Below are positions 2,914-47,672 of a DNA stretch of 64,000 nucleotides, in pieces (position 1 is the first letter of the stretch; each line of letters begins with the position of its first letter). Where the stretch lies: positions 66,334-130,333 of the forward strand of contig JBAXUE010000002.1 in assembly GCA_037129835.1 (NCBI GenBank). The letters are read 5' to 3'. The notes below the pieces were generated by a model that did no database searches, was not told where the DNA came from, and saw only the letters and a list, made by a program, of their open reading frames with translations. Source of the DNA: a bacterium (GTDB taxonomy: Bacteria > Patescibacteriota > CPR2 > UBA1875 > CAIMLA01). Both the position numbers and the translations under genes were made by a program.

Positions 2914-2954
2914 ACTTCTAGGTATAAACGTATAAATGCCATAATGTTAATTTA

Positions 2955-2994: not shown

Positions 2995-2999
2995 ATTTT

Positions 3000-3028
3000 A
3001 CAGTTCAAATAATATATTATGTTAAACT
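3000..3028. other. dif: Candidate dif site (Xer recombinase target) at a replication-terminus-like strand switch
   Basis: ACAGTTCAAAT-AATATA-TTATGTTAAAC. The right arm matches the E. coli XerD arm TTATGTTAAAT at 10 of 11 positions. The AT central hexamer and A-rich left arm resemble the B. subtilis dif ACTTCCTAGAATATATATTATGTAAACT. It lies exactly where + strand genes meet - strand genes. Confidence 0.5.
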
Positions 3029-3456
3029 ATACATTTAACAATTTACTTGCAAAGAAAACTCCAGCCACATACTGCAGAGCTATTACAGATACAGAATAAC
3101 TTTCTCCAATATTTAGGCTTTGCAAAGATATAAACGATGTATTTTTATCGTTTTCTATGACCACTTACACCCCCAAGTCGATATAATCAAATAGTCGTCC
3201 AAGATATATTGTGCGACACAATGCTTCAAGCAGTTCTGGTAGGTAAGGGTGAGGCTATGGTAGTCATCTAAGTATTTAATTAGGTCGACCCATACCGTTT
3301 AGACTTAGGGCGCAGAGAAAAAAGGGGGAACTTCTTTTACTTTATAATGTAACAATTCTATTGTATTTTGATTAAGTAATTGAGTATTTTAAAAATAATC
3401 CCCCCAAAAAAAATTGGATATAATTTGTAATCATAAACGATAACTTAATATATTAA

Positions 3457-7553: not shown

Positions 7554-7613
7554 AATTCGTAATACGATTATAGCATAAAATAGCCTGTTGTGTCAACTTA
7601 TTTGCCTATAGCG

Positions 7614-8462: not shown

Positions 8463-8477
8463 TAGGTTATTTTACCA

Positions 8478-10584: not shown

Positions 10585-10627
10585 AGTCTTATTCTAAGCT
10601 TAGAGTAAGCATAATTCAAGTGTACGT

Positions 10628-12157: not shown

Positions 12158-12193
12158 TTTGTGGCCTTATTCTAGGCCAAACACGGCTTATAT

Positions 12194-13444
12194 TCAAGTA
12201 GGTATCAGGGTGTTTTCTCGAAGCAACTTATCTAGTTCCCTTGCTTCATCGCTGACCTTTAAGGACATTTCATTATATCCTAGCAAGCTTAAGCCATCGA
12301 GTTCACGAATACGAGAGAGCGCGACATATCCAAGTCCATATGTAAATGCTCGGCTGAGGTCTATTTCGGCATAATCAAGAGTCATTCCTTGGCTTTTGTG
12401 TATTGTTATCGCCCATGCAAGCCGTAGCGGAATTTGTTCGATCCAGCCATCGAAGTCGATTTCTTCTATTCCCCAACGGATCGGCATCGCGATTATTTTG
12501 TTGCCCTTAAATGTTTCTACTATTGGATTGTTGGTTTCTAAATCGAAACCGATTATTGTACCCGTGGTGCCATTTACGTATCCTTTGGCAAGATTATTAA
12601 ATACGAACATTACAACGGCGCCGATCTTTAGCTTTAGTTTCTCGGGTGCGAGACAACCTTTTTTCATTTGGCCGACGATAAAGTCATCACCGCTCGACGA
12701 CATCAGATAGACTCTTTCGGCTTCATCTATCACTGCTAATCTCTGGAGATTATAGTCATCGACATTAGAATTGTGGGTAAAAAGCTTGGTGGGTATTATT
12801 CCTTCATCGAAGCCACAGTTTATTCTAGAGCTTAGTAGCTCGCAGGATTCTTCTGTCACTCTAGATTCTCTGATCTCGTTTAGAAGCCTATAAAGGTCGT
12901 TATTGTCGCTCTGTCTGTATTGTTTCTCGAGATAACATATCTGGAGGTCCATCTGTTGCCAGGCAGTGGATTTATTAACAAAATCACCACTAGATTTACC
13001 TTTCGCAACCGGAGGCAATTGGAAAAAATCTCCACAAAGCACTACTTGCAAGCCACCAAATGGCCCTAGATCCGTTCTTACTCTACGGCAAATCTCATCT
13101 ATCATGTCTAGTTGATGGGCGTGTAGCATCGATACTTCGTCTATTATCAGAACTTTTGCTTCTTGGATTCTTTTTACTGTAGATTTGTTACGACTAAAAA
13201 GCTTTTTGATATCTGCGCTAGTTATATTGTCCTTGATCCCTATCCCCGACCAAGAGTGGATGGTCACCCCGTTTAGATGTGTCGCAGCAATGCCAGTAGA
13301 GGCGGTAATGCCAACAGCAATATCGTTTTTATTTAAATACTGAATAAACTGGTTTAGTAGAAATGTTTTTCCAGTTCCTGCTTGGCCAGTTATCAGAGCA
13401 TTTTTGCCGCTTACTAATATTTCAAAAGCTTCTTCTTGGGTCAT
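12194..13444 (-). CDS. Pif1/RecD-like SF1B DNA helicase (compact 416 aa)
   Basis: GQAGTGKTFL (motif I), LIIDEVSML (motif II), and a C-terminal ITIHKSQGMT box typical of RecD/Pif1/TraA helicases. Confidence 0.75.
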   Translation of the reverse strand: MTQEEAFEILVSGKNALITGQAGTGKTFLLNQFIQYLNKNDIAVGITASTGIAATHLNGVTIHSWSGIGIKDNITSADIKKLFSRNKSTVKRIQEAKVLIIDEVSMLHAHQLDMIDEICRRVRTDLGPFGGLQVVLCGDFFQLPPVAKGKSSGDFVNKSTAWQQMDLQICYLEKQYRQSDNNDLYRLLNEIRESRVTEESCELLSSRINCGFDEGIIPTKLFTHNSNVDDYNLQRLAVIDEAERVYLMSSSGDDFIVGQMKKGCLAPEKLKLKIGAVVMFVFNNLAKGYVNGTTGTIIGFDLETNNPIVETFKGNKIIAMPIRWGIEEIDFDGWIEQIPLRLAWAITIHKSQGMTLDYAEIDLSRAFTYGLGYVALSRIRELDGLSLLGYNEMSLKVSDEARELDKLLRENTLIPT

Positions 13445-13552
13445 TTATGTATTATCCCGTTTATTGGGAATATATTCCAGTAGACAGTCCATATATTTTG
13501 AGTACGAGTGTGTTTTTATAGATGAAGGGTTAAGGTTATTGAAAATTATGAC

Positions 13553-14188
13553 CTAAATATTTTTTAATGTCTTGACCGCCCTGTTTGTTTGTTCAATAAA
13601 ATCACCTTTGTATTCTATGATACGGAGGTTATATTTGTTTGTTTCTTTTGTAATTTTATCAGAATATTGGCTGAGCATATTGGCAATTTTGGGATAAATT
13701 TTGTTATTTTTTGATTTATTTTTCACCCAGCATGACTCACTTTGATCTAGTAGTATATTATTGATAAAATCTTCAGATTTTTGTTTCGTCACTATTACTG
13801 CCTTTATCTTTTTTTCGCCGTACTGGTCTATCATCTCTTTTATAAATTTCGGCGCCAGGTGATATCCTTCTATTATGATATTGTGTCCGTCTCCCAGGGT
13901 ATACGCTATTAGCCCCCCGATTGCAGGTTGTGTAATTGCTCCTTGAGCGGTGTAGGCACGGATAATGTCTGTTGCAGAGTTATTGTTATACATTTCTTCA
14001 TTTGATGATGTATTCTCTCTAATTGTATCGATGGGAAATAGCCTCGCAATATCAGCTTTATCAATATAAGGCTTTACCATACCCTCGATAGTGTCTGTGG
14101 AGACCCACGGGATGCCAGTATCTATGGACAGTTTATTTGCGACCGTTGTTTTCCCACATCTTGGCGGCCCGCCTATAAGATATATCAT
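13553..14188 (-). CDS. P-loop NTPase / small-molecule kinase family protein
   Basis: N-terminal IYLIGGPPRCGKTT Walker A. Size and layout resemble a nucleotide-kinase or AAA_33-like protein. Substrate unknown. Confidence 0.5.
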   Translation of the reverse strand: MIYLIGGPPRCGKTTVANKLSIDTGIPWVSTDTIEGMVKPYIDKADIARLFPIDTIRENTSSNEEMYNNNSATDIIRAYTAQGAITQPAIGGLIAYTLGDGHNIIIEGYHLAPKFIKEMIDQYGEKKIKAVIVTKQKSEDFINNILLDQSESCWVKNKSKNNKIYPKIANMLSQYSDKITKETNKYNLRIIEYKGDFIEQTNRAVKTLKNI

Positions 14189-14220
14189 ATATTACCTCAA
14201 AATTATTTTGTTCTTTAAGC

Positions 14221-15708
14221 TCATTGAATTTTTCCGAGAAATTCCCATATCTTGACCATCGCTAGTGTGTCGAGTCCACAGTAGTCCCAGAGGTCTTTTA
14301 GAATTTTCTCTTTTTCGTCTGGATTATTACCATCGAGGACCGCTCCCATCCACAGTCTTTGGGCAGCCAGTCCTTCGGATATTTCTAGGTCTTTGTGTGA
14401 AAGCTCGGGAATAAGTACAGGTAGAACGTGTTTTATTGAAGCACTACCGCCAAATCTAGCGTCCACGTAGTCAAACTCTATAAATGGAGTGATTAGATCG
14501 ATGATTCTCTCATTCAGATTATGATAAAAGGTATGAAACTCGGGCAACATCTCTCCCATATCCCGATTACATCCCTTTTCGAAATCTTCCCACCAGACTA
14601 GTACACTGCCTTTTTTGCCAATATTTTCTGCAAGAGATTGTGATAGTGGTAATACTGGATTGCTATTGTCCTTGTGTAGATATTCGAGATGTCTTACTTC
14701 TGCCCCAGGGCTATCTATAATATGTAGTGAATATTGGAAAGGCACTTGTTGAAACGGTTTATGACCGTCAAAATACGGTATCACACTGCTCATAGTCTCA
14801 TAGTCAAGAAAATATATAGGATACTCTATTGTTGCCAAGAATTGTTTAATATTTTCTTTATTAATAAGCGCTTTATTCTGTTTTAGGGCCTTTATTTGCC
14901 ATCCTTGTTTATCAGAGAGACCAGCGAAATCTTCTGGAACCTCGGCAATCTTCGTGTAACCAGCTTTTTCTAGCTTTCCTATCAGGGTCGCGCTAGGATT
15001 ATAGATATCATAGATACTGCCATCACCGCTTTTTATCCCTGCTAGTAGTTTGTATATTTCTATCCAGTCAGAAGTAGCCGAAAGACCACAGTGTGCAGGT
15101 GAAATATCTGGCATTTTATCTAGCTTGGCAGTTCTAAGAGCTTCTGCGATATTTTCTCTGGCCGCAGGTATTCGTTTTTTTACGGCATCGGTAATATCTG
15201 TGACCGTAGTAATGTCCTCGGGTTTTATTTCTCCTTGTCGAACGAAGTCTTTGTTCACATGAGCTACCATAATGTTGCGTACATGGTATCCCGAGTCCTC
15301 GATCACTATTGTCTGAAATGCCAGATCATGTTCGTGATATACTCGTGGTCCCGTGGAAGATTTGATTTCATATAGATCAATCATATTCTCGTCAACAAAC
15401 TGGATTACGTCAAAAATACAGGTTAGCTCCCCTGCTTCGAAACGACCTTGGAATATAGTTTTAGCGCCAGATTCGATTACCAGTTTTGTTCTACCCGGTA
15501 GAGATAGATACTCTTTGTAGCCGTCCCAGTTTAGCTTCACACCATCTGGAAAAAGCTTCTCGGCGTAGGTTTCAAAACGAAAACCCGCTGCGAATATCGC
15601 TTGAGTAGCCGCGTCGTATGGCGGCAGTTTCTTGGGCTCATTCTTTTTGAGCCAAAGCCAAGCAGGGTGTTTTAAATATAATAAATAATCAGATTTGGAT
15701 AATTGCAT
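14221..15708 (-). CDS. PD-(D/E)xK (RecB/Cas4-like) nuclease domain protein with DUF2779-like C-terminal region
   Basis: N-terminal RecB-like fold. D…DVIQFVDEN…DLYEIK fits the D-(E/D)xK catalytic motif. Large C-terminal domain of unknown function. Confidence 0.55.
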   Translation of the reverse strand: MQLSKSDYLLYLKHPAWLWLKKNEPKKLPPYDAATQAIFAAGFRFETYAEKLFPDGVKLNWDGYKEYLSLPGRTKLVIESGAKTIFQGRFEAGELTCIFDVIQFVDENMIDLYEIKSSTGPRVYHEHDLAFQTIVIEDSGYHVRNIMVAHVNKDFVRQGEIKPEDITTVTDITDAVKKRIPAARENIAEALRTAKLDKMPDISPAHCGLSATSDWIEIYKLLAGIKSGDGSIYDIYNPSATLIGKLEKAGYTKIAEVPEDFAGLSDKQGWQIKALKQNKALINKENIKQFLATIEYPIYFLDYETMSSVIPYFDGHKPFQQVPFQYSLHIIDSPGAEVRHLEYLHKDNSNPVLPLSQSLAENIGKKGSVLVWWEDFEKGCNRDMGEMLPEFHTFYHNLNERIIDLITPFIEFDYVDARFGGSASIKHVLPVLIPELSHKDLEISEGLAAQRLWMGAVLDGNNPDEKEKILKDLWDYCGLDTLAMVKIWEFLGKIQ

Positions 15709-15718
15709 ACTCGCCTAT

Positions 15719-15997
15719 CTAGTTGGTAAAGCCAACGTGCTTGGTATTTTCTTCTGCTTGCTCTATCTTAACTCCAAAACCGCTTTCATACTGTTCTATA
15801 TTGGTTTTGAGTGCCTCGTAGAGCCTTTTGGTGTGTCCTGGTGACATTATTATCCTTGAGAGCAACATTCCTTGGTTCTGGAAGATATTAATGAAATCTA
15901 GGGTAAATTCTTCTCTAGTATGTCCGATCATCGCGACATTGGCATAGTTTCCCTTCAGGGTGGCGTCATCGGCTTTTATTTGTACTTGTTGTTCCAT
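15719..15997 (-). CDS. DUF3467 family small protein
   Basis: 92 aa. The pattern GNYANVAMIGHTREEFTLDFINI…SRIIMSPGHTKRLYEALKTNIEQYE matches my recollection of the DUF3467 consensus. Confidence 0.55.
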   Translation of the reverse strand: MEQQVQIKADDATLKGNYANVAMIGHTREEFTLDFINIFQNQGMLLSRIIMSPGHTKRLYEALKTNIEQYESGFGVKIEQAEENTKHVGFTN

Positions 15998-16017
15998 AGT
16001 GTCTCCTTTTCTCTCTT

Positions 16018-16103
16018 CGTCATTCTGAACCGAGTGAAGAATCTAGGATTGTATCTGGATTCCTGCTTACCGCAGGCAAGCTTCTTTCCGACTCAGGATG
16101 ACG
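16018..16103. repeat. 86-bp GC-rich MITE/REP-like element (GTCATCC family) with imperfect terminal inverted repeats
   Basis: The ends CGTCATTCTGAACCGAGTG and, reverse-complemented, CGTCATCCTGAGTCGGAAA are inverted repeats. An internal CCTGCGGTAAGCAGG hairpin is present. 45 of 48 nt are identical to the copy at 19816-19863 in opposite orientation. Confidence 0.65.
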
Positions 16104-16122
16104 ATTTGGGGGTGTTAAATTA

Positions 16123-18852
16123 TTATTTTGATACTAATTTCTCTGCTACTAGTTGGGTTATTCTCTTTGGAGGTTTATTTCTAGCTTTAAATGTTTCTTG
16201 AACCAAAAGATAGAATAAAGCGATAAATATTGCTATTGCCCAGGCAGAGAAGTTAAGCGGTGCCATGCCAGCGAATTTCTGGAGAAAAGGAACGTAAATT
16301 AATAAATTTACAAACATAAAAGACACGGCCAGTCCTATCCAGACTCTTTGTGAACCAAGTAGTTTCCATACTGGTTTTCTGGCTGACCGTATAGAAAAAG
16401 CGTTGGCATATTGGCACAGGGCCATGGTGGCATAAGTGACAGTAGTGGCCGCAATATATGTTTCGTTATTCGGAAAAGCACTCCCCCAACGCCAACCATT
16501 TAGATATCCATATATGCAAAATCCCGCCACCGAAAAAACACCCAGCATTATACCACTCCTTACGATGTAGTAGATAGTATCTGTACCAAAGAGGATATCC
16601 TTTTTGTCTCTTGGCGGTTTTGACATCACATCATCCTCTTCTATATCGCCTGCAAGTGCGAGAGCCGGAAAAGCCTCTGCGCAGAGGTCGATTAATAGTA
16701 TTTGGATAACAAAAATCGGAGGCAAGCCGATAACTAGCCCAAAAACAACAGCAGTGAACTCCGCCATATTTGCAGTAAAGACATATTTTGTTGCTTTTTT
16801 GATATTGTCATAGACGATTCTGCCCTCTTTTACCGCCCAAACAATAGAAGAAAAACTGTCGTTCAGCGAAACCATTTCTGCAGCTTCTTTGGTAACATCT
16901 GTTCCTGTCAGCCCCATCGCTACGCCAATATCCGAGGTCTTTAGAGCCGGAGCGTCATTGACGCCATCGCCTGTGACCGAGACGATATTTCCATGTGCTT
17001 GTAGTACTTTCACTAGCCGCAGCTTGTGGATTGGGTCTACCCGAGAGAATATTACATCTCCAGTTTCGATAATCTGATATAGTTCATCGTCTTTCAATTG
17101 ATTTAGTTCATTACCGTCGATGACGCGCGGATCTATGTTCAGCTTGATTCTCTTACCTACGGCTGCTGCTGTCAGGCCATAGTCGCCAGTCGCCATTATT
17201 ATCTTTATTCCAGCTTCTTTAGCGATTCTGACAGTTTCTGCTACATCTTCTCTTGGTGGATCGATAATACCAAGAAGTCCTAAGAAAATCAGGTCAGAAT
17301 CGATTGTACTGCCATCCATAGGCTTATAGGCAGAGGCTATTACTCTCAGCGCATCCTTGGAATATTCGTCATTTGTTTTTTCGATATCTTTTCTATCAGC
17401 TGTAGTTAGTTCGACTGCTTTGCCACCCTTAAGTATTTTTGTACATTTTTGTAAGATAACCGCAGGCGCCCCTTTGACGTATACCGTCTTTTCACCTTTG
17501 TAGTCGACTGCCTTGGCCATGAATTTTCGTTCTGAAGTAAAGGGTATTTCCTCTACACTTTTCGCTTCCCTCTGCATCGTATAAGTATCTAGTCCTGCCT
17601 TTTCTGCTGCCACAAGCAGAGCGATCTCGGTTGAGTCACCGATATAATCTGGTTTGTGATGATTTTTTGTATCGACTTCGGCATTATTGGAAATAGTTAC
17701 AGCTTGAAACAATATATTAGTTTCATCCAGACAGCTTCTGTTGCACAGTTTTCCTTCACGGGTGATTTCCCCGTCGAGACTATATCCCACGCCCTTTATA
17801 TGATAATTTTCGTTATTAAAGTAAATCTCTTTTACGGTCATCTGGTTCTTGGTTAGGGTGCCTGTTTTGTCAGTAATGATGTAGTTTGCCTCACCTAGGG
17901 TTTCCACTGCCGAAAGTCTGCGGATAGCAGCCTTTCTTCTGGTCATTTTTTGGATGCCGATCGCAAGTGCGATAGACACCGTGGCTGGTAAACCCTCAGG
18001 GACAAGAGAAGATGCTACTCCGATGGCAAAACGAAAAGATTCTAGTGCGTCAAAGTGACCCTTTGCTACTGTATCGACTACGAGCAGGATGAGAACGACC
18101 CAGAAGGTTGCTTTGGCTACAGTCTTGGCAATCCGGTCTATCTCTATTTGTAGCGGTGATTTTGATACCTTTTGGGTCGAGGTTATTTTGGCAATTTTAC
18201 CAAAGCTAGTTTCCATTCCGGTGGATACCACCACACCGATACCGTTACCAGAGATTACGTCAGTTCCCATAAATACAGAGCCTGTTACATCGACTACGTT
18301 TCTCTCGTTCTCCTCTGTTACCATCGCTACTTTGGATTGTGTTTCAGATTCTCCTGTAAGTGCTGCATCATTCGTTTCTAACTCATTTGCAGATATTAGC
18401 CGGATGTCTGCTGGTATCTTCATTCCCTCGGAAAGAACAATAATGTCACCGGGTACGATATCCATGGCGTCGATAGTCTGGCGGTCATTGTCTCTGATAA
18501 CGGTTGCAGACTGAGCGACAAATTTCTTAAGAGCGTCTATCGCTTTATCAGCTTTGTATTCTTGGAAAAAACCAATAGTGCTATTGGCAATCACAACTAA
18601 AAAGATGACAATTGCATCTTTAGGTGCTCCTAGAATATATGCGAGACCGGCGGCCGTCAGAAGAACTATCGCTAGAAGGTCAGTGAATTGGACAAGAAAT
18701 TTGACTATATATGGAGTTCGTTTTTGCTGTACTAGCTTATTGTGGCCGTATTTATTGAGACGCGTTGTAACTTCTGCGCTCGAAAGACCTTTGTCAGTCG
18801 TCTTTAGAGTATCTAATACTTTAGTAATATCGTCATAGAGCAATGAATTCAT
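16123..18852 (-). CDS. P-type cation-transporting ATPase (P2-type, Ca2+/Mg2+-like)
   Basis: Cation_ATPase_N-like start, phosphorylation site DKTGTLT, hinge GDGVNDAPAL, and about 10 TM helices. Confidence 0.9.
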   Translation of the reverse strand: MNSLLYDDITKVLDTLKTTDKGLSSAEVTTRLNKYGHNKLVQQKRTPYIVKFLVQFTDLLAIVLLTAAGLAYILGAPKDAIVIFLVVIANSTIGFFQEYKADKAIDALKKFVAQSATVIRDNDRQTIDAMDIVPGDIIVLSEGMKIPADIRLISANELETNDAALTGESETQSKVAMVTEENERNVVDVTGSVFMGTDVISGNGIGVVVSTGMETSFGKIAKITSTQKVSKSPLQIEIDRIAKTVAKATFWVVLILLVVDTVAKGHFDALESFRFAIGVASSLVPEGLPATVSIALAIGIQKMTRRKAAIRRLSAVETLGEANYIITDKTGTLTKNQMTVKEIYFNNENYHIKGVGYSLDGEITREGKLCNRSCLDETNILFQAVTISNNAEVDTKNHHKPDYIGDSTEIALLVAAEKAGLDTYTMQREAKSVEEIPFTSERKFMAKAVDYKGEKTVYVKGAPAVILQKCTKILKGGKAVELTTADRKDIEKTNDEYSKDALRVIASAYKPMDGSTIDSDLIFLGLLGIIDPPREDVAETVRIAKEAGIKIIMATGDYGLTAAAVGKRIKLNIDPRVIDGNELNQLKDDELYQIIETGDVIFSRVDPIHKLRLVKVLQAHGNIVSVTGDGVNDAPALKTSDIGVAMGLTGTDVTKEAAEMVSLNDSFSSIVWAVKEGRIVYDNIKKATKYVFTANMAEFTAVVFGLVIGLPPIFVIQILLIDLCAEAFPALALAGDIEEDDVMSKPPRDKKDILFGTDTIYYIVRSGIMLGVFSVAGFCIYGYLNGWRWGSAFPNNETYIAATTVTYATMALCQYANAFSIRSARKPVWKLLGSQRVWIGLAVSFMFVNLLIYVPFLQKFAGMAPLNFSAWAIAIFIALFYLLVQETFKARNKPPKRITQLVAEKLVSK

Positions 18853-18967
18853 AAATATATTTTATGCTATATATAGATAATAATGAAGAGAAATAAATAC
18901 AAATGGAGAAGGTCCGCGCCGGGAAGACGCTTTATATAGCTACCTTCTCGTTGCGGACCTCTTGGAC

Positions 18968-19342
18968 CTAGTCTTCGACCTCATCGATCCCGAGCATCGC
19001 TCTCGCGACTTCGATATCGGGTGCCAGGTCGAAGTTGTTGGTGTACTTCACCAACTTCTTAGAGACCTTCTCGTCCTCGGGGACTACGATCACAAACGGA
19101 ATGTGATCATTCATCAGGTACCGACCAAAGCTGTAGATACGGCCGATAGCCGCGCTACAAAGCTTGGTGACCATTGCGAGGTCGAGAATGACTCCGGCCT
19201 TGCGGGCCTTTATCAGAGTCTTGTCGAACTCGAGTCGGAGAACCGGCTCGACACTGTCGTCGAGATTTCCTCCGAGCTTCAGGATCACGGCCTTGTGGCC
19301 GTTACCTGCTTCGAACTTTTCGATACTGTGTACACAATGCAT
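18968..19342 (-). CDS. STAS domain protein (anti-sigma-factor antagonist SpoIIAA-like) in GC-rich module
   Basis: AVILKLGGNLD…GVILDLAMVTKLCSAAIGRI matches the STAS pattern v.l.G.LD…viDls.v.fiDSsGlg.l. Strong SD GAGGGGGA 4 nt upstream. Coding GC is visibly higher than in neighbouring genes. Confidence 0.55.
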   Translation of the reverse strand: MHCVHSIEKFEAGNGHKAVILKLGGNLDDSVEPVLRLEFDKTLIKARKAGVILDLAMVTKLCSAAIGRIYSFGRYLMNDHIPFVIVVPEDEKVSKKLVKYTNNFDLAPDIEVARAMLGIDEVED

Positions 19343-19351
19343 ATATCCCCC

Positions 19352-19666
19352 TCAGTCGGTTTCTAGTATTGCCGGGTTTTCGGAAAAGAACCATGAACCC
19401 CACAGCTCTCTCTTGACACCTACTTGCAGCGAATGTACCCACATTCCCCCTATGGGGATTTCGAAAGAGGGAAAGAAATCGAGTTCGATCTCTCCCTGCC
19501 AAACCACTTTCTCACGGTCAACGATATCGTAGATGACAAGTGAGTCACCGGTCTGGAGCAAGTGCAGGCCATCATAGCCGCCTTGCCTTCCTTCTTCTTC
19601 GAAGGCCCAGAAACCTCCTTCGGTTCCGGTCTCGAAGTAGAAATGTAACGTACCCACAAGTTTCAT
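19352..19666 (-). CDS. Hypothetical 105-aa protein (GC-rich), first gene of STAS two-gene module
   Basis: Start re-assigned to MKLVG, which has SD GGAGGTG 6 nt upstream. The longer ORF prefix overlaps repeat elements. No recognisable motif. Stop lies 9 nt before the STAS gene. Confidence 0.45.
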   Translation of the reverse strand: MKLVGTLHFYFETGTEGGFWAFEEEGRQGGYDGLHLLQTGDSLVIYDIVDREKVVWQGEIELDFFPSFEIPIGGMWVHSLQVGVKRELWGSWFFSENPAILETD

Positions 19667-19711
19667 GTGGCTCACCTCCCAAACGATGTTATCGTGATTG
19701 AGACAAAGAGG

Positions 19712-19740
19712 ATTATACAACATAATGAGTGTTCTGTAAA
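19712..19740 (-). promoter_or_regulatory. Near-consensus sigma-70-type promoter TTTACA-N17-TATAAT
   Basis: On the - strand: TTTACAgaacactcattatgttgTATAAT, positioned about 45 nt upstream of the 105-aa gene start. Confidence 0.5.
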
Positions 19741-19758
19741 GATAAACATATACTCCCC

Positions 19759-19863
19759 AGTCATCCATGGCCCGCTTTCGTCATCCTTGCGAACGCGAGG
19801 GTCTCTTTTGGCAACGTCATCCTGAGTCGAAACGAAGCTTGCCTGCGGTAAGCAGGGATCCAT
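19759..19863. repeat. Cluster of three GTCATCC-family repeat units (second terminus of the inverted pair)
   Basis: AGTCATCCATGG, CGTCATCCTTGCGAACGCGAGGGTCTC and CGTCATCCTGAGTCGAAACGAAGCTTGCCTGCGGTAAGCAGGGATCC. The last unit is 45/48 identical to the inverted copy at 16.06 kb. Confidence 0.65.
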
Positions 19864-20230
19864 GTCCACTCTCCTTATCGTTCGAATTCTAATGAGAACT
19901 ACAGATACAGGTTATATGTAGTTTTCATAGGATCTACGTAATCCAACCATCAGTTCGAAAAGAAAGAGAGTAAAGTAACGAAGTTATAATAAATAACTTC
20001 CGGTATCGGCTTGTTGTTATTTATTATATTTGAGCTACTGCAACGAATGATACTTTAAAGAATCTGTTAGGTTGGGCTTTTTGCACCACTTTTATTAAAA
20101 AAGTGGCATATATTATAATATAACGTTTAAAAGATATTCGCTAAAGTCGTAATTGCTCGACCTCGAAGATAGTCGAGTACACGGTACCAAGGCGATTTTT
20201 CATTGGGATTAACGCTTAAATATACCGCCC

Positions 20231-21254: not shown

Positions 21255-21280
21255 AATTACTTTTCCTCTCCTGTGTCATC

Positions 21281-21311
21281 CCTGGCCACAAACCAGGGAT
21301 CTCCTGCTTAT
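21281..21311. repeat. GTCATCC-family hairpin repeat TGTCATCCCTGGCCACAAACCAGGGATCTCC
   Basis: Near-identical to the reverse complement of 34762-34792 (TGTCATCCCTGGTCACAAACCCAGGGATCTC). Confidence 0.55.
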
Positions 21312-34688: not shown

Positions 34689-34792
34689 TGGGGCAAGACC
34701 CAGGAGGTCATCCTTACGAAAGTAAGGATGACCTCCGGAGGGTAAGAAAGAGATCCCTGGGTTTGTGACCAGGGATGACAACGGGTGTTCCC
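34689..34792. repeat. Cluster of three GC-rich hairpin repeats (GTCATCC family), BIME-like
   Basis: CCTGGGgcaagaCCCAGG; GTCATCCTTACgaaagTAAGGATGAC (a perfect 10-bp stem); GAGATCCCTGGGTTTGTGACCAGGGATGACA. Confidence 0.6.
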
Positions 34793-37370: not shown

Positions 37371-37940
37371 TCACATCTTTGATTTTCTCGTTTCGGTAAG
37401 TAGCCTTTCATATTCGTCTATTATATTGCTATCTAGTTTTGTTTTCAGCACTCTTAGTATTTCTTCGTGATACCAGAGTCTTTCTTCTGGAGTGGAGTTA
37501 AAGTTTTTTCCAGCTTCTTCGCCTACTAATTTCTTGTCGTCTAATAGGTTTCTCATATTATGAATTTTGTCTGCGGCACACACCATCAGAGACTCTACTC
37601 TGTCGTTTTCCAGATTCTCAATATAGGCATCTTTTCTGACTTTCCATGGCAGTTTCTCTTTGCCATCTGATTTCTTTTCAGTAACGCCCATAACTATCTC
37701 ACAGACATCTGGTCCAAAATCTCTGGTAAGCTCCTCCGGAGTGTATTCTGAGTCTTCTATCGTATCGTGAAGTAGCCCGGCTACTATGGTATTTTCGTCA
37801 TCGGTGTAGTTTGACAAGATAATAGCGACAGCAAAAGGATGAATGATATATGGAATGGCTACGTCTGATTTTCTTAGTTGATCTCGGTGGCAGACTGCTG
37901 CTACCTTTAGGGCTTTTTCGATCTTTGGTGTATATTTCAT
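37371..37940 (-). CDS. HD-domain hydrolase of the RelA/SpoT (p)ppGpp-hydrolase type (small alarmone hydrolase-like)
   Basis: HP…VA…LLHDTIEDSEYTPEEL…FGPDVCEIVMGVTE matches the RelA/SpoT HD (HD_4) pattern. Confidence 0.7.
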   Translation of the reverse strand: MKYTPKIEKALKVAAVCHRDQLRKSDVAIPYIIHPFAVAIILSNYTDDENTIVAGLLHDTIEDSEYTPEELTRDFGPDVCEIVMGVTEKKSDGKEKLPWKVRKDAYIENLENDRVESLMVCAADKIHNMRNLLDDKKLVGEEAGKNFNSTPEERLWYHEEILRVLKTKLDSNIIDEYERLLTETRKSKM

Positions 37941-40063: not shown

Positions 40064-43000
40064 TTATTCTTCTTTGCTTTCGATTTCCGCAGCTGCCTTG
40101 ATGGCTATCATGGTTTTCCAGAGATCTTGTAATGTGCTTAAGCCCTCGGTATGGCTAAGTGCGGCCTGACTCGGTTTGCTTATTTCGACGAAACCGGCTT
40201 TACCGATAATCTCAGGGACAAAACCTTGTGAGTCATCATTAATCGGTTTCTCATAGTCAGTCCACGGGTCTACAAAGGCTACTTCCATGTGTTTTTCGGT
40301 CGGCATTATCTCAACAAATTTTGTATGATCTTCACCGACACCATCCTTGGTTTTACCAAAAAATCGTAATGTTACTCCACCGAGAGATTCCTGTCTTCTG
40401 TTTAAAAAGTTGTAAAGACACTCGAGAGATCGGGGTGCTCTTCTAGTAGATTCATCCATAAATAAAGCTCTTCCTCCAAGCATTGAAATCATTTTGAGGA
40501 ATGTGAGATACTCATCGATCCCCTCTGGCTCATCTTTACTGGCGTTAGAAAGACTAGAAGGAATTTTCGTGCCATATATTGGTATTATAAGCTCATCGTC
40601 ATATCCAATAGCTTCTTTTGCCTCTGTAATTAATGTTTCGTCTAAGGCGCCAGTTTGTTCATACTCTTCAAAGGCGGCTTCAATCCGATCTTTATTTGCT
40701 CGTACAAAATTGCGAATATCATCGGTACGAAGCTCTTGGAGTATTTTTCTTTCTTTAGCAAACTGTTCTGGTAAGTATTCGGCTGCTACATCGGCAGGAC
40801 CAGTCCTCTCATTGGCAAGCAAAAAAACAGGGCTTTCTGGATTTTCTCTTTGATATAACAGAGCCGTATTCCAAGTAGTGACTGATGACTCAATATTATG
40901 TTCCATAGTTTCTATCAATTGCTCTGGAGTAAAATTTGATTTTCTACGATTTCTACCTTTTTTGTCTTCTAGTGAACCAAGCTGTTCGTAAAAAATATCT
41001 CCAGTAGTATAGGCTGAACCCTTTTCTATAATTTTTTGTGCGATATATTTTGCCATTTCTACCAGTGGTATTGCATTAGGATGTTCTCTTTTTATCTTCA
41101 CAAATTCTCTTAGAAACTCAACAGGCATCTTAAAATTCTTTGGCTTAATATTTAGATCGCTGACAATCTCATCGTAGATCTTTCTGATGTGTATATAATC
41201 GGAGGAAAAACGGTCAATCTGTGCTGCATCTTGGGAAAAAGGAACAAAACCTTCCTTGAAACCATCCAAAGAGGCTTCTAGCTTACTCTGTATCTGCTCT
41301 ACAGTATCATCTAGGGTTACTTGGTCTTCTGTCAGCCACCTAAGTGCCCGTGAAATTATTTGAAATCTATCGGCGTCAGAATAATTTTCTAGTTCCCTTG
41401 TTAGTATTTGTAGTTTTATTGGGTTATCAAACTGTTTATAACAGGAAATGTCCAGTAGTATCTGTGTGGCTTCTTTTCCCTCTGCAAACAAAGATGCTGT
41501 CAACTGTCCCAACTCAGAATTTTTTGTTTCCTCTAGGTCAGATATTCTTTCGTCGGAAATATTCGTAATGTTATCCACAAAAGTCATAAAAGAATCAAGT
41601 AATAGTTCTCGATTTTCTTTTTTGATACTACCGCTTTCTATAGTGTCTTGGTAAACGTCTATAAAATACCAGAAATTATCAAGACCGGTTTTGTCGATCA
41701 CTTTACTAAAAAATTCTATATCATCATCTCCGCTAAATAATTCGGGATTCGACACAAGATATTCGCAAAGCCTTGTATAATTTATTGCTTCAGTGTGATC
41801 TGTGGCAGACCCCAATATTTTATTTATAAAATCCTTGAAACCAGGCTTTTCGGCAAGAATAAAGACATTCGGCAAAGCCTCTTCGGATAAATATAGGTCA
41901 TAAAATAATTCATTATTTGCCCTTAAGTCTGTTATGTATGCGACATATTCGCTAGCTGCAGTCACCTGCTCTTTTGTAACTCCATGTACCTGTCCATATA
42001 ATTCGAACCCAGACTCGGAAATTTTGTCAGAAAGGAAAAGAGCATCCAATAACATTTTTGCAGTATTTTTGCTTTTCCCAAGCCTTTCGTAATTGTTCAA
42101 CAATACAAGGATAGCAGTCCTAACATATTCTAAATCTCCTTTATAGGTAAATTCTTGGAAGATTTCCACTAAAGAAGCTATAACTCTTGGGTTGGTAGCG
42201 GTTTGAAGTGCTTGGTCGAGCTCGTTTAGATGATCAGCTTTTGCTTGCTCTACATTCTCACTACCATCTTTATCTTTTTCTGGAAAATCTTCCATAATCC
42301 CAATGATAAAAAATCGCTCTTCTTCAGTTCCATTGTTGGCAAAATATAGTGCAGTTTGCCTTAAAAGGCGGCGAAATTCACGGTCATTGTCAAAATTACT
42401 TTTTTCTCCACTGTCTTGATACCAAAGTTGCAGGGTATTCGGATTGGCCTTGATGAAAAGTATAAAATCCAGAAGCTCTTTGGGGAGCTCTATTAGGTTT
42501 CTCAAGTCATCAGATGAAAGTGACTCTAGATATCCGGGTAACTGATCAATATATGGCCAACCTCCAGAATAACCTACCTCTCTAAAGGCATTTAGGACAT
42601 TAATCTTTACGGCCTCGGGATCTTTAAAAGAAAGAAGCATAGAGCTACATCTCACCGAAAGGTCTGAATGGTCGTTTATTACTGTCATTTCATCGATAAT
42701 TGATCTTTTTATTTTAGTACGGATTATATCGACTAGGGTTTCTCCAAAAATATCTGACAAACCAGGGGCTTCTATTAAGAATTTGATTAAATCACGTTTT
42801 TGATTAAGAAAATCACCATCAATTTCAGTTATTAATCGTTTTAGCATTGTGGTATCTGCAATTGAGTCTTTTTGAGGGTTGCTTTCGACTTGTCGTATGC
42901 GTTTTCTTATCAATTCGGCTAGATCATTGTATTTATCGAATTCTGTAAAAATAGTAACGGCATCTGCAATATTATTTCTACTAATATTCATTGATTTCCT

Positions 43001-43846
43001 GATCTCAGAGGCTAAATCATGGCCACCGATCTCCCTAATTTTTTCTTCAGTCTCTGAAAAGTCACCGTCTTGGTAAAATTCTAAAAGGGGTACTCTCGCT
43101 TTTTCTAAGTTTTCATCAGAAAGTGCTTTTATTTGTTTGACCAGATAGTCGCGATAAGGCCAGACAATCAATTCTTTTTCTGCTTCTTCTCGTGTCTTCC
43201 GAGCTTCTTGAACAAAGTATTCATAGAAGGAAAGACCCATCTTCTTTTGTAATTCTACCCCTGGATCTAACTCATCTTTTTCGGTTAGGATGCTATTTAC
43301 GGCTTGTTTCATCTCGTCGATCTCTTCCCAACCGACAGACATAGATGGTTCTGCGATACTAATGATTGAACTTATAGTTAGCGCGCCATTAAAATTATAA
43401 TATTCTGGTTGTACGGGGCTAGTAATATTTGAAGATTCTTTAAGTCTTGGGAGGTTATTTTGTAAAACCTTGATTCTAACGTTATTTTCTCTGATGGAAA
43501 TGCTCAGCTGGACAATTTCTGTGATGATTGTTTCTAGTTCTTGATTTGTATTATCTTTAGATAATATCTCTCTCAATTGAGACATTAATGTGAATAATTT
43601 TTCATCAAACCTGCCGTTCATTTCCACCCAAATTTTAAGAGACTTGCATAGTTCTTCATACTCCGTCACATCAATTTGTTCTTTCGACTCTAGTTCCATC
43701 TTATAGTCTACGATAGAGGGCAAAAGCGGTTTTGTAATGTCAATATATAGACGAGAAAGTAGTTCGTTCTTGTCAATGCGTTTTTCTAATCTTTGATAAG
43801 GCGTTTCCGGGAACTCTGTATTCTCATGTTCTATTTCTTGGCTCAT
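40064..43846 (-). CDS. Giant (1260 aa) acidic, predominantly alpha-helical cytoplasmic protein without recognisable domains
   Basis: Uninterrupted ORF with no TM helix and no nucleotide-binding or catalytic motif I can recognise. Last gene of a three-gene same-strand cluster. Confidence 0.6.
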   Translation of the reverse strand: MSQEIEHENTEFPETPYQRLEKRIDKNELLSRLYIDITKPLLPSIVDYKMELESKEQIDVTEYEELCKSLKIWVEMNGRFDEKLFTLMSQLREILSKDNTNQELETIITEIVQLSISIRENNVRIKVLQNNLPRLKESSNITSPVQPEYYNFNGALTISSIISIAEPSMSVGWEEIDEMKQAVNSILTEKDELDPGVELQKKMGLSFYEYFVQEARKTREEAEKELIVWPYRDYLVKQIKALSDENLEKARVPLLEFYQDGDFSETEEKIREIGGHDLASEIRKSMNISRNNIADAVTIFTEFDKYNDLAELIRKRIRQVESNPQKDSIADTTMLKRLITEIDGDFLNQKRDLIKFLIEAPGLSDIFGETLVDIIRTKIKRSIIDEMTVINDHSDLSVRCSSMLLSFKDPEAVKINVLNAFREVGYSGGWPYIDQLPGYLESLSSDDLRNLIELPKELLDFILFIKANPNTLQLWYQDSGEKSNFDNDREFRRLLRQTALYFANNGTEEERFFIIGIMEDFPEKDKDGSENVEQAKADHLNELDQALQTATNPRVIASLVEIFQEFTYKGDLEYVRTAILVLLNNYERLGKSKNTAKMLLDALFLSDKISESGFELYGQVHGVTKEQVTAASEYVAYITDLRANNELFYDLYLSEEALPNVFILAEKPGFKDFINKILGSATDHTEAINYTRLCEYLVSNPELFSGDDDIEFFSKVIDKTGLDNFWYFIDVYQDTIESGSIKKENRELLLDSFMTFVDNITNISDERISDLEETKNSELGQLTASLFAEGKEATQILLDISCYKQFDNPIKLQILTRELENYSDADRFQIISRALRWLTEDQVTLDDTVEQIQSKLEASLDGFKEGFVPFSQDAAQIDRFSSDYIHIRKIYDEIVSDLNIKPKNFKMPVEFLREFVKIKREHPNAIPLVEMAKYIAQKIIEKGSAYTTGDIFYEQLGSLEDKKGRNRRKSNFTPEQLIETMEHNIESSVTTWNTALLYQRENPESPVFLLANERTGPADVAAEYLPEQFAKERKILQELRTDDIRNFVRANKDRIEAAFEEYEQTGALDETLITEAKEAIGYDDELIIPIYGTKIPSSLSNASKDEPEGIDEYLTFLKMISMLGGRALFMDESTRRAPRSLECLYNFLNRRQESLGGVTLRFFGKTKDGVGEDHTKFVEIMPTEKHMEVAFVDPWTDYEKPINDDSQGFVPEIIGKAGFVEISKPSQAALSHTEGLSTLQDLWKTMIAIKAAAEIESKEE

Positions 43847-43945
43847 AAAGTAATATTAATATTATTTAAGCTTTATTACAAGAAACTATTATCATTGAGA
43901 TTCTTATTTCCTAGATATATGACATGGGTCTATTTTGTATATATG

Positions 43946-44752
43946 TTATAAAACTTTTAATTCTTTCGCACGCTTTATTTGAGAAATATCTTCTGGTATT
44001 TTCCCAGCTAGAGAGTTTCCTTTAAATGATTGAATAATCCTAACTTCTTCAATATCAATATCGACTCGACTGGTAGAGGCTAATACCAGTCCTGGTTCTC
44101 TGATTGTGCCTTTTGACGGACCACCCGTGATAAAGCATTTTCTAGCATCCATAATGATGAGATCTGGTGTATAGATAGTATTCATCTCAGCGACTTTCTC
44201 GGATACTTTGCCGAGATGTAGACTGATTCTCTCTGTTGGCTTCATAAAGCCAATAATAATCTTCAGTGCACCGGTAAAGTCAGCGATAAAGTGGGTTTTG
44301 CAGCAGGGCAAGAGAATAATCTTGTCTACTTCATCCATGATCTTTGGCACTGATACTTTCTTTAGATATTTTCCTTCTGGGATTTGTTTTGTCACCCACT
44401 GATGGTCATCAAAAATGTATATATCCGGTGGTGTCTTGGATTTCTGCAGGTCATAGACACATGCCTTGCACAATGTCTTTTCTGTTGATATAGAGTGATT
44501 ACTGATAGTAAAAGTTGAGCTCTCGCCCACTATCACCCTTTTGGCTCCAGCTGCGAAGACGAGCTCGACAGTAGCTGCCAAGAAGTCTGGTGCTGTCGAT
44601 GCCGGTGATTCATCCGCGGTATTGTAGTTGGGCTTTATTAGTACAGTCTCACCTTTTTTAACGAAATTATCAAAACCACCAATTTCATCAACTGCTTTTT
44701 GAATTGATGGCTTAATATCTTTTTCTGCTTTTACCTTGGCTATATGCATCAT
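43946..44752 (-). CDS. DUF362 domain protein
   Basis: ETVLIKPNYNTADESPASTAPDFLAATVELVFAAGAKRVIVGESS fits the DUF362 N-terminal pattern (vliKPN…tT.p.vv.a…ag). Confidence 0.5.
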   Translation of the reverse strand: MMHIAKVKAEKDIKPSIQKAVDEIGGFDNFVKKGETVLIKPNYNTADESPASTAPDFLAATVELVFAAGAKRVIVGESSTFTISNHSISTEKTLCKACVYDLQKSKTPPDIYIFDDHQWVTKQIPEGKYLKKVSVPKIMDEVDKIILLPCCKTHFIADFTGALKIIIGFMKPTERISLHLGKVSEKVAEMNTIYTPDLIIMDARKCFITGGPSKGTIREPGLVLASTSRVDIDIEEVRIIQSFKGNSLAGKIPEDISQIKRAKELKVL

Positions 44753-44765
44753 AATTTTTTTATCC

Positions 44766-46043
44766 TTATCTGATTATGTCTTCCATCCCATGTTTTAAAA
44801 GTAATCTAATGAACTCCCCAGAGGTAAATATCTTTGCGAAGTTTGGTCCACTAGCGGTAAGGTCCGCACCTTCTTTTTCTGAGAGCAGCTTAAGTAGCGC
44901 TTCGGCTTCTTCTGGGTCAACGATATTTTCTACTGAGTGTGAGCTTTTCCCTCCGATTTGAATAGCTGATTTTCTTCTTTGTTTTCTTGTTTCTGACATG
45001 TAATAATCAGTCATAAATTTATCATAGTCTGGGTCCATCATAGATACCTCTCGATAGATTCCTTCATTGGTTAACTCAGTCATTTCTTCATTTATCTCAT
45101 ATCCGGTCATCATGACAGTGTCGCCTTCACTATTATCTATCCTGATTCTCCCACCCAAAATCTTAACAGCATATCCGTCTTTTAGTGTTCCGTCTGGTTT
45201 TAGTAGCCTTTCTTTGTAAAAGTTTTCAACTCTAGTCTTGAACTCGGCATTCTGCTTATAATGATTGTTATTTTTGATAAAACTGTTTATCAGCTGTCTT
45301 TCGAAATTAGCTATTATCACTTTTGCTAGTCTATCTTTTTCTTCTGGGTCGGTTACTAACTCTGGCTTTGACTCTAGGTGAATATATTCATGAGACAGTG
45401 TATGTGATACATCAAGTAGCTTCATTTGTCGTATTTGCTCTGGTGTATGAATAGCTGTGATCTCTGGGCTCTCAAACTGATATGAAAATTCCTGCATATT
45501 CTTTTTTACGTCTGCATAAGTCATATATGCCTTACCGTCCTCGACGAAGCTAGTAGTGGCAAATACATAATCTTTTCCTGGTTCTAGGTACATGGTGAAT
45601 TCAAATTCGTCCTTAAGAATCTTTTGTAGATCTTTTGTTTCAGTAGAACGACTGTCAGATTCTTTCTTTTCTATTACTTCGCCGTCCACTATTTCGAATA
45701 AATCGGCTGAGAAATCTGCTGCGATATCTGGGACAATTTTTTCCATTGCTTGTTTTACAGATATAGATGCTTCAGCTATCAATGATTGCATAACAGGGAT
45801 AATCTCTGCCTTTTCTTTCTCAATATCTCGGGTCATCTCATTAGCTTCATTTATTTGATCAATACTGTCTTGAGACCCCTTGGGGTCGTTCTCACGGTGT
45901 TTTGTAAAAAATCCCTCTGCTCTTGAGTAATCTTCTGTGCTAGGCAATGTAACATTGCGATCACTCGCTATTGCTTCTGCAATTTTCTTTACTACGAGTC
46001 CTTCTTTGTAGGCTTCGTCGTTGCTAAGTCTTTCTGGTGTCAT
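44766..46043 (-). CDS. Hypothetical 425-aa protein with HExxH (SHEYIH) motif; first gene of the giant-protein operon
   Basis: HEYIH motif. No TM. 13-nt gap to the DUF362 gene. Confidence 0.45.
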   Translation of the reverse strand: MTPERLSNDEAYKEGLVVKKIAEAIASDRNVTLPSTEDYSRAEGFFTKHRENDPKGSQDSIDQINEANEMTRDIEKEKAEIIPVMQSLIAEASISVKQAMEKIVPDIAADFSADLFEIVDGEVIEKKESDSRSTETKDLQKILKDEFEFTMYLEPGKDYVFATTSFVEDGKAYMTYADVKKNMQEFSYQFESPEITAIHTPEQIRQMKLLDVSHTLSHEYIHLESKPELVTDPEEKDRLAKVIIANFERQLINSFIKNNNHYKQNAEFKTRVENFYKERLLKPDGTLKDGYAVKILGGRIRIDNSEGDTVMMTGYEINEEMTELTNEGIYREVSMMDPDYDKFMTDYYMSETRKQRRKSAIQIGGKSSHSVENIVDPEEAEALLKLLSEKEGADLTASGPNFAKIFTSGEFIRLLLKHGMEDIIR

Positions 46044-46168
46044 ATTATTCTTCCCTTATTATCAAATATTACCTCAGTTAGTTGTTGTAAACAACCTTAG
46101 TTTACAAAAGTTCGGAGCCCAAGATCGGGCCCCATTAGGGTGCCGTCCATGGGCTCATATTGTTCTAC

Positions 46169-46492
46169 TTACTTCTTCTCGAAGGCTGGTGGTTTTACCC
46201 ACACACCTCTTTTGCGAAGTAGCTTATAGAAACCTTTTAGGATATCTTGGTATTCCGACTCTACAGTCGAAATGTTGAGCTGTTGCCAAGCCTCCTTTAG
46301 TTCTCGATACGAGATGTTGCTCGCTAGTGACTTCCACTGGTCTTGAGCCCCAAAGTAGAAGATATAGCTACTAGGGCCGCATCGCTTTCCGGTGATGTGT
46401 ATCACTATTTCTCGACGACGATTCGACTTGCATAAATAGACTTTGACACAGTTGTGTCGAAAGCATCTGCCGATAAAGCCAAGCTTACTCAC
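46169..46492 (-). CDS. Hypothetical ~107-aa Cys/His-rich protein in GC-rich island (probable GTG start)
   Basis: SD GAGAGGAGGA lies 6 nt before the GTG (VSKLGFIGRCFRHNCVKVYLCKSNRRR…). GC-rich coding sequence unlike its surroundings. Confidence 0.4.
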   Translation of the reverse strand: MSKLGFIGRCFRHNCVKVYLCKSNRRREIVIHITGKRCGPSSYIFYFGAQDQWKSLASNISYRELKEAWQQLNISTVESEYQDILKGFYKLLRKRGVWVKPPAFEKK

Positions 46493-46533
46493 GATGGGTC
46501 CTCCTCTCACTAGGGGCAGATTGTGCGACTACT

Positions 46534-46650
46534 CTAGCTGCGGTGCTTCTTCTTCCCTTTTCTTGGGTGAGCAGCAGTTACGGCCTTGCCACAACCTCTG
46601 GCGCAACATTTCCTGCAACGCCGCAGATCCTTTTCGTTACAGATTCGCAT
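46534..46650 (-). CDS. Candidate 38-aa Cys-rich basic peptide (MRICNEKDLRRCRKCCARGCGKAVTAAHPRKGKKKHRS)
   Basis: Strong SD GGGGGGAG 5 nt before the ATG. The longer annotated ORF prefix is AT-rich and probably non-coding. Confidence 0.35.
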   Translation of the reverse strand: MRICNEKDLRRCRKCCARGCGKAVTAAHPRKGKKKHRS

Positions 46651-47066
46651 GCTCGCTCCCCCCGATAGTAATGGATACCAGACTAGGTGATAATATACTA
46701 AAATATTTGTCAGAGCAAGGTAAATCTGCTCAAAATTAATTAATAATTGTAAATATATTTTGTAATATGCGGCCATTTTCTTTGCATAAAGCCACAAAGG
46801 TTCTCTCAGCTTTTGCTCAGATTTGATGTATACAATATAGATGTCATTTAAACAAGGAAGGAGATGAATGACAAAACCTGGCGAGTAGTGATCGCCGCTA
46901 TCAAGACTTGGCGCCACTGGAGGACACGAATTTCACAAAGAGTTGGTGCTAGTGTGTCGCAAAAGTCGGATAGCAAATACAGTTCAGGGCTAGAAGTACA
47001 TATTCTCAGCTCGGGCAGGGTCACGAAAACCACCACAACTAAATATATATTTTTCATTCCACTCAA

Positions 47067-47099
47067 AATAATAGAGGCCATCCCCCGGCCTCTATTATT
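47067..47099. terminator. Perfect 13-bp stem-loop AATAATAGAGGCC-atccccc-GGCCTCTATTATT, probable intrinsic terminator
   Basis: Verified stem and 7-nt loop. T-rich flanks on both strands. Confidence 0.5.
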
Positions 47100-47269
47100 A
47101 TTAATATCAATAATGCAAAAAGCCATCGTTTGGGAACGATAGCTTCCATAGGCATTCCTCTCTGTTGTTGGAATAATAGATGGTTTGCTGTTTGGTCGAA
47201 GTCCTCTGCGATATTACTCGCTCTCTCACCTACTGGTGAGACCCATGGGCTCCATTGTTGCGGTGTTGA

Positions 47270-47512
47270 CTAGCTTGGGAATTTGATTCGCTTGCCAATT
47301 TTTTCGGCTCTTACTGCCTTAAGGAATTCTTCGGGTTCTATCCCAAAGTGCTCCGAGAGCCAGTTTTGAACCTCACAGAGGGCGTAGTTGCGTTCCCACA
47401 ACGTATCTCCTCTAAAGGACTGTGAAGCCAAAGCGATAACCTCCGCTCTGCTAAAACTGTCATAACCGTCTTTGTTGGTACTGTTACTCCCTTTCTTCAT
47501 GATTGTCTCCAA
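47270..47512 (-). CDS. Hypothetical 80-aa protein (GC-rich island)
   Basis: ORF with acidic/aromatic composition. No motif. Confidence 0.35.
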   Translation of the reverse strand: METIMKKGSNSTNKDGYDSFSRAEVIALASQSFRGDTLWERNYALCEVQNWLSEHFGIEPEEFLKAVRAEKIGKRIKFPS

Positions 47513-47630
47513 TCGCTAAACGCTGGTTTGATCCAACGCTGTCGTCTTATGAACGACAAGAACTGATAGGACTTAACACAAACGATATTATAGTCATTTA
47601 ACGGGGTTTTGTCAATAAGCATCAATAATA

Positions 47631-47664
47631 AAGCCGAGGTGATCTTTCCCCCTCGGTTTTATTT
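47631..47664 (-). terminator. Intrinsic terminator downstream of ABC transporter operon (bidirectional character)
   Basis: AAGCCGAGG-tgatctttccc-CCTCGGTTT stem-loop followed by TTTTATTT. Lies 10 nt after the ABC ATPase stop. Confidence 0.55.
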
Positions 47665-47672
47665 AATGGTAA

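Follow-up and report, generated by a model that had tools for sequence, protein, structure and literature searches.

The question raised by this locus is what a giant protein with no recognizable domain does in a bacterium of the Patescibacteriota, and whether it works together with the two genes that precede it. In the window analyzed here, a 64,000-nt stretch of the 372,584-bp metagenomic contig JBAXUE010000002.1 (assembly GCA_037129835.1), three adjacent genes encode a protein with an HExxH motif (gene 1), a DUF362 protein (gene 2), and an acidic protein of 1260 amino acids (aa; gene 3, the giant gene); their coordinates and those of the features discussed below are given in table 1. A first-pass annotation had read these genes as an operon under a palindromic operator, and had described the giant protein as domain-less and all-helical, a candidate scaffold or effector. 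Large unannotated proteins make up a sizeable share of the small genomes of uncultivated bacteria, and most of them offer no handle for study. We found that the giant gene is real and that its product is one of a small group of related giant proteins that had not been described, and what had been a 1260-aa ORFan is now resolved into two defined modules, A and B. Tentatively, as the best of the readings weighed but one that is possible rather than probable, we propose that the giant protein is a multi-module enzyme in which the product of module B is phosphorylated, possibly by transfer from phosphoribosyl pyrophosphate (PRPP), and that in most relatives a fused HAD phosphatase dephosphorylates this product.

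An assembly artefact was ruled out because a full-length orthologue exists (P0006, 1264 aa, aligned to the giant protein from end to end at 45% identity) and because the open reading frame (ORF) is intact on two contigs; the interrupted frame that the first-pass annotation had named as the mark of such an artefact was not observed. The NCBI entry of the protein, from a metagenome-assembled genome (MAG), is 'hypothetical protein WCP14_01975'. Its isoelectric point (pI) is 4.66, Asp and Glu account for 18.3% of its residues, its best 19-residue Kyte-Doolittle window scores 1.1 with no hydrophobic segment of transmembrane (TM) quality, and it has no signal peptide; a motif check found neither Walker nor HExxH. 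These sequence properties confirmed the earlier description of a highly acidic, cytoplasmic-looking protein lacking Walker, HExxH, and TM features. No match was obtained in Pfam (searched with five segments at E <= 5), NCBIfam, PADLOC, or PHROGs, and with no library match, clear homology to a known family was not found. A phage or defence-system origin was considered as well and had no support in the PADLOC and PHROGs scans. A word-indexed homologue search returned the giant query alone, and a single fragment when the module B profile was used, whereas an exhaustive HMMER search with aa 61-1260 against 1.84 billion representatives recovered 37 relatives at E < 1e-3, about 35 of them partial.

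The limits of the two modules were determined by phmmer and local profile searches. The label 'domain-less' thus holds for the curated libraries but not for the family, in which both modules are common to other giant proteins. Module A is helical and is characterized by the motif NAFRExGYSGExPF...PG (aa 419-432 in the giant protein). P0006 and P0007 contain it too, as do about 25 further giant proteins that lack module B, mostly 900-1900 aa in length, and in P0029, which has module A only, an HD domain is located at the C-terminal end. Module B is present in the giant protein, P0006-P0019, P0021, P0022, and P0039. In the module B alignments (A3 and A4), 78 positions were invariant over 10 proteins with 33-61% identity; they cluster in LRWLPE and TAYTxED, both within the helical region of the module, and in FIIANERTGPAD, IPIYxxKIPSS, LFMDESTRxAPRS, FGK, IDPW, KPxxDDSxGFVPE, and QDFWK.

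Module B folds confidently, with no close relative of solved structure. The single-sequence AlphaFold prediction of aa 61-1260 had a predicted local distance difference test score (pLDDT) of 38, and the prediction of module B from an 18-row alignment had a pLDDT of 87.3 and a predicted template modeling score of 0.84. No credible match was found in searches of PDB sequences with the module B profile or with P0010, and Foldseek comparison of the model with PDB and BFVD yielded nothing at E <= 0.001. The model consists of a helical region followed by an alpha/beta domain, whose strands lie at model positions 319-324, 399-406, 438-442, 470-476, and 499-505; strand 1 is succeeded by an insert of four helices, and the domain further includes a small beta 'hood' and a terminal helix. 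The giant protein is therefore not all-helical, since its last ~255 residues form an alpha/beta domain in this confident model. The invariant motifs fall in loops directly after the strands, in a beta-loop-alpha topology. In Rossmann-like enzymes, phosphates and metals are bound in loops after strands. On the model, the invariant Arg, Ser, and Thr residues (of the phosphate-binding type) and the Asp and Glu residues in these loops would form an enzyme-like, active-site-like set.

The strongest evidence bearing on the chemistry of module B is its association with a HAD phosphatase, which lies directly behind the module in 12 of the 18 relatives with a resolved C-terminal end (the window protein counted). 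Pfam detected the HAD domain (PF08282, Hydrolase_3, and more weakly S6PP, PF05116) right after module B in P0007-P0011, P0022, and P0042, and a family-specific HAD profile detected it at the same place in the metagenome loci L010, L011, and L012. In three uninterrupted ORFs of much greater length, the module B-HAD pair lies in the middle: L004 (4563 aa, ORF 95-13786; module B at aa 3171-3679 and HAD at 3692-3941), L005 (6630 aa, ORF 23-19915; module B at aa 3287-3836 and HAD at 3844-4099), and L014 (at least 5827 aa, spanning the whole locus; module B at aa 2649-3161 and HAD at 3183-3440). A GNAT domain (aa ~2345-2413) is also present in L005, and a weak Rce1-like segment in L004. The catalytic DxDGT motif is intact in these HADs. 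Because the pair stays adjacent amid shuffled surroundings, module B is probably tied to phosphate-ester chemistry. Six complete proteins end at module B (the window giant, P0006, P0012, P0013, P0014, and L013), and a HAD was looked for near the HAD-less relatives but none was found. For one of these, P0013 (locus L015), a GT2 glycosyltransferase gene (1277-2140) ends 16 nt before the giant gene; it is the only such neighbor seen, and it hints weakly at glycan metabolism.

Two described systems combine a transferase and a phosphatase in a comparable way, namely gPRT with the HAD-family PRP of Thermobacillus composti (PDB 7SHG) and CriT with CrpP in Bcs3 of Haemophilus influenzae (PDB 8A0C). 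Both gPRT and CriT are phosphoribosyltransferase (PRT)-like five-stranded domains with helical-bundle insertions, which move ribofuranose-5-phosphate from PRPP to a glycan, after which the fused HAD phosphatase strips the 5-phosphate (PMC10299916; PMC11127046). In CriT, the loops after strands 1-3 contain S678-R679-D680 (loop 1), S707-R708 (loop 2), and a segment starting from E818 (loop 3) (PMC10299916; PMC11127046). In module B, invariant E1013-R1014-T1015, K1094/S1097-S1098, and D1131-E1132-S-T-R follow the first three strands, putative counterparts of the split acidic pair (D680/E818 in Bcs3) and the Ser/Arg phosphate loops of CriT, as judged only from the order of secondary structures. 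The likeness may extend to a core of five parallel strands in the alpha/beta domain, with one helical bundle inserted and others at its flanks, and to the acidic and Ser/Thr/Arg loops behind the first three strands. Also similar are the location within a large (>1100 aa) cytoplasmic multi-domain protein and, in the module B relatives, the physical coupling to a HAD phosphatase, which in the described systems dephosphorylates the transferred unit. Module B also resembles type I PRTs such as HGPRT, in that it has a Rossmann-like five-stranded core and a hydrophobic strand with acidic residues at its end, after which comes a phosphate-binding loop, ALFMDESTRRAPRS; the top-ranked single-domain matches in Foldseek were HGPRT structures, although these were not significant (E 0.3-2.7, TM-score 0.29-0.35). 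The domain of module B is much larger than that of type I PRTs and contains helical insertions.

In the order of its parts, module B followed by HAD-IIB, the family is closer to bifunctional phospho-sugar synthase/phosphatases than to CrpP-CriT. In sucrose-phosphate synthase-SPP, trehalose-phosphate synthase-TPP, and mannosyl-3-phosphoglycerate synthase-phosphatase, the synthase is followed by a HAD-IIB phosphatase, and the synthases adopt GT-A or GT-B folds and fall into well-defined Pfam families. The HADs of the relatives match PF08282 and PF05116 (S6PP), which agrees with this group, but module B is a single alpha/beta domain without a Pfam match, which does not. Giant multi-domain proteins in uncultivated bacteria have reportedly been surveyed (for example in bioRxiv 10.1101/2023.11.21.568195). 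Such proteins are said to be very long metagenomic ORFs, mosaics of shuffled modules that are mostly unannotated; unlike these, the window giant, at 1260 aa, is of moderate length, lacks both a signal peptide and TM segments, and has no domain match in the curated libraries searched.

We proposed the following mechanism. The giant protein would be a cytoplasmic multi-module protein, in which a helical scaffold of ~1000 residues, with the widely shared module A as one of its parts, precedes the family's core, module B. The alpha/beta domain of module B would be an enzyme yielding a phosphorylated product, most likely by phospho-sugar transfer, for example of ribose-5-phosphate from PRPP, with a glycan or some other molecule as the acceptor. 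The HAD-IIB sugar-phosphate phosphatase that is fused to module B in two thirds of the relatives would then dephosphorylate the product, following the two-step logic of the ribofuranosyl transferases that pair gPRT or CriT with a HAD. The window giant would be a HAD-less variant, the product of which would keep its phosphate or lose it to a phosphatase acting in trans. Several observations weigh against this proposal. The window giant has no HAD, and none was found among the window ORFs. When the true Bcs3 sequence, recovered through a PDB search, was compared with the C-terminal profile of module B, CriT scored -1.9 bits in hmmsearch and had a probability of 0.1% in hhalign. The loop ALFMDESTRRAPRS departs, by eye, from the PROSITE-type PRPP motif of classical type I PRTs. 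The helical insert is behind strand 1 in module B but behind strand 2 in CriT. The HAD is C-terminal and Cof/S6PP-like (PF08282), the reverse of the order in CrpP-CriT, where it is N-terminal, and no capsule or O-antigen genes surround the window giant, unlike the context of gPRT and CriT. The resemblance to CrpP-CriT may thus be an analogy only. We also considered an extension of the proposal, which we regard as speculative and unlikely in its full form: module B would represent a so far unrecognized transferase class of the phospho-sugar (PRPP) type, its sequence having drifted too far from CriT and gPRT for the kinship to be recognized, and would form with HAD a portable transfer-then-dephosphorylate unit in giant proteins, both those of episymbiotic (Patescibacteria-like) bacteria and those of other uncultivated ones, ribosylating or glycosylating an envelope polymer or a host molecule, while the HAD-less form in the window would leave the phosphate on its product. 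The hypothesis of PRPP/phospho-sugar transfer followed by dephosphorylation is testable with a compact expression construct, either aa 689-1260 of the giant protein or the module B-HAD pair of a relative. If it holds, the recently discovered PRPP-dependent glycosylation chemistry would gain another protein family and reach lineages in which it is new.

Other readings of the giant protein were weighed against the same evidence. The first-pass annotation had suggested a non-catalytic scaffold or structural protein, in which the modules would be surfaces that bind other proteins or a polymer, and this fits with the ~80% helical content of the protein, with its acidic composition and lack of a known catalytic motif or library domain, and with the helical-bundle build of module A and of the N-terminal portion of module B. 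We nevertheless consider it unlikely, in view of the invariant charged and hydroxyl residues that cluster in post-strand loops, a pattern typical of active sites, and of the catalytically intact HAD phosphatase beside which module B stays in 12 relatives. If the alpha/beta domain of module B does handle phosphate, it might still be neither a phosphoribosyl nor a glycosyl transferase but another kind of domain, rhodanese/Cdc25-like, phosphate-binding, or phosphatase-like; this appears less probable still, as the loop has no catalytic Cys, the scores of such folds are as weak as those of the transferases, and the coupling to a HAD phosphatase would not be obviously explained. A further possibility concerns the target rather than the chemistry, and is compatible with the enzymatic reading: the giant proteins might be effectors that episymbiotic or intracellular bacteria direct at a host, with a type IV system as one conceivable export route and with the module B-HAD pair modifying a host molecule. 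The placement of this pair inside ORFs of 4563, 6630, and at least 5827 aa, alongside GNAT or Rce1-like segments, would suit such a role, as would the origin of the closest named gene 1 homologue from a Patescibacteria MAG, and the window encodes a 998-aa protein (3457-6453) to which NCBI assigns a DNA-binding (coupling) domain of type IV secretion systems, which we take as background only. The absence of a signal peptide or TM segment in the giant protein is compatible with this type of export, but neither a secretion signal nor a chaperone was in evidence, linkage to secretion genes is not conserved, and the giant genes lie in ordinary housekeeping contexts, and we therefore regard an effector function as doubtful.

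The two genes that precede the giant gene were identified largely as the first-pass annotation had described them. Gene 1 encodes an acidic protein (pI 4.84) without Cys or Trp, and the HExxH motif claimed for it is present as HEYIH. Three homologues were found, at 37-41% identity and each of exactly 425 aa, and all four known members of this family share, without variation, HEYxH (aa 218-222) and, downstream of it, the Glu-rich motif GYExNEExxELxNE (aa 314-327). No match to gene 1 was found in Pfam, NCBIfam, or PDB, and a profile search of PDB sequences gave nothing credible; judging from the motifs, a zincin-like metallohydrolase is possible. Gene 2 is an ordinary DUF362 protein, as had been claimed, with a match to PF04015 above the gathering score (134.8 bits against a cutoff of 24; E 5.4e-39; profile positions 1-195 of 200).

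Whether the three genes form an operon with a common function, repressed through the palindrome at its promoter, was examined from their layout, their relatives, and the upstream DNA. They lie on the same strand where the first-pass annotation had placed them, separated by gaps of only 13 nt (between genes 1 and 2, as stated earlier) and 99 nt (between gene 2 and the giant gene, rather than 100), which would be in keeping with an operon; this adjacency carries little weight, because the window has an extreme strand bias, the minus strand carrying 45 of its 48 ORFs of at least 150 aa. Cumulative GC skew drops steadily over nearly the whole window, as expected inside one replichore. The three-gene linkage was kept in no relative examined, whether of gene 1 or of the giant gene, which argues against the operon as a functional unit. 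Neither a DUF362 gene nor a giant gene was found near the three gene 1 homologues, which are accompanied by LysM and LemA, by Exo_endo_phos and NUDIX, or by divergently oriented genes. Among the giant relatives with readable flanks, no annotated DUF362 gene adjoins the giant gene; these flanks were not homology-searched for gene 1. The gene for P0006 is flanked by an MgsA-like ATPase gene on one side and by SDR and M23 peptidase genes on the other, that for P0012 adjoins cupredoxin, DUF929, and VKOR genes, and the contexts of P0014 and L006 are likewise unrelated. In addition, the 99-nt gap is AT-rich and has, by eye, a weak TTGTAA-17-TAATAT pair of its own before the giant gene. These results indicated that the three genes are neighbors, possibly co-transcribed, but not a conserved functional unit.

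The palindrome upstream of gene 1 is real, although it lies 7 nt away from the position given in the first-pass annotation (46078-46100), and its sequence did not occur in 100 shuffles. It is perfect and stands right after a terminator-like hairpin, the U-tract of which overlaps its left arm, and a weak TTGTTT-18-TAATAT pair can be discerned by eye over its right arm; the scan for sigma-70-like promoters found no consensus promoter on the minus strand of this intergenic region. Perfect 8-bp inverted repeats with spacers of 3-10 nt are common in the window (39 matches at ~22 loci, against 9.7 +/- 3.3 in shuffles), and because of this, a single intergenic repeat is unremarkable in itself. The palindrome has one copy in the window, and allowing 3 mismatches added one more, which is AT-rich and within a coding region; its half-site occurs 5 times against 3.1 expected, which is no enrichment. 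The search for a regulon thus gave no further copies, and no half-sites beyond chance, in the window, and the palindrome was not found upstream of the two gene 1 homologues with readable DNA. An operator role of the palindrome is accordingly not supported by what can be read from the DNA, nor is repressor control, and we consider an operon repressed through it highly improbable; this part of the locus appears ordinary. Another hairpin, ATCCCTGG-n7/8-CCAGGGAT, occurs twice in the window (21278-21300 and 34753-34776), the second copy being the inverted first, and is a recurring palindromic element.

Table 1. Positions of the genes, modules, conserved loops, and upstream elements in the 64,000-nt window.
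Feature	Residues (aa)	Position (nt)	Strand	Basis or remark
Gene 1, 425 aa, with HEYIH at aa 218-222	1-425	44766-46043	minus	ORF call
Gene 2, 268 aa, DUF362 (PF04015)	1-268	43946-44752	minus	ORF call and Pfam
Gene 3, 1260-aa acidic giant protein	1-1260	40064-43846	minus	ORF call
Module A, conserved helical module	340-540	42227-42829	minus	Profile searches
Module B, helical region (~689-1003) and alpha/beta domain	689-1260	40067-41782	minus	Profiles and AlphaFold
Alpha/beta domain of module B, five main strands	1004-1260	40067-40837	minus	AlphaFold
Invariant loop NERTGP	1012-1017	40796-40813	minus	
Invariant loop KIPSS	1094-1098		minus	
Invariant loop DESTRRAPRS	1131-1140	40427-40456	minus	
Invariant loop FGK	1163-1165		minus	
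Invariant loop DPW	1193-1195		minus	
Invariant loop DDS	1204-1206		minus	
Perfect 8-bp inverted repeat TTGTAAAC-AACCTTA-GTTTACAA (7-nt spacer)		46085-46107		42-64 nt before the start codon of gene 1
Intrinsic-terminator-like element (GC-rich hairpin, then CUUUUGU)		46113-46156	minus	Immediately upstream of the palindrome

Two further features of the surroundings were observed. Two genes downstream of the giant gene, a 189-aa HD_4 protein is encoded (37371-37940); an HD phosphohydrolase might conceivably stand in for the absent HAD. On the other side of the cluster, 1.5 kb of DNA (46170-47670) contains no convincing gene and has a GC content of 0.43, compared with ~0.38 nearby; its ORFs are short only (80, 92, 127, and 113 aa) and in differing frames, and a search of this region against Rfam gave no match, the sole hit being a chance-level Thr_leader (E 0.02). 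The region could encode small proteins or a non-coding RNA, or could be a gene in decay. Within it, right after an ABC ATPase gene, a perfect sigma-70 consensus, TTGACA-17-TATAAT, is present on the minus strand (47615->47587), and it is followed by three terminator-like hairpins.

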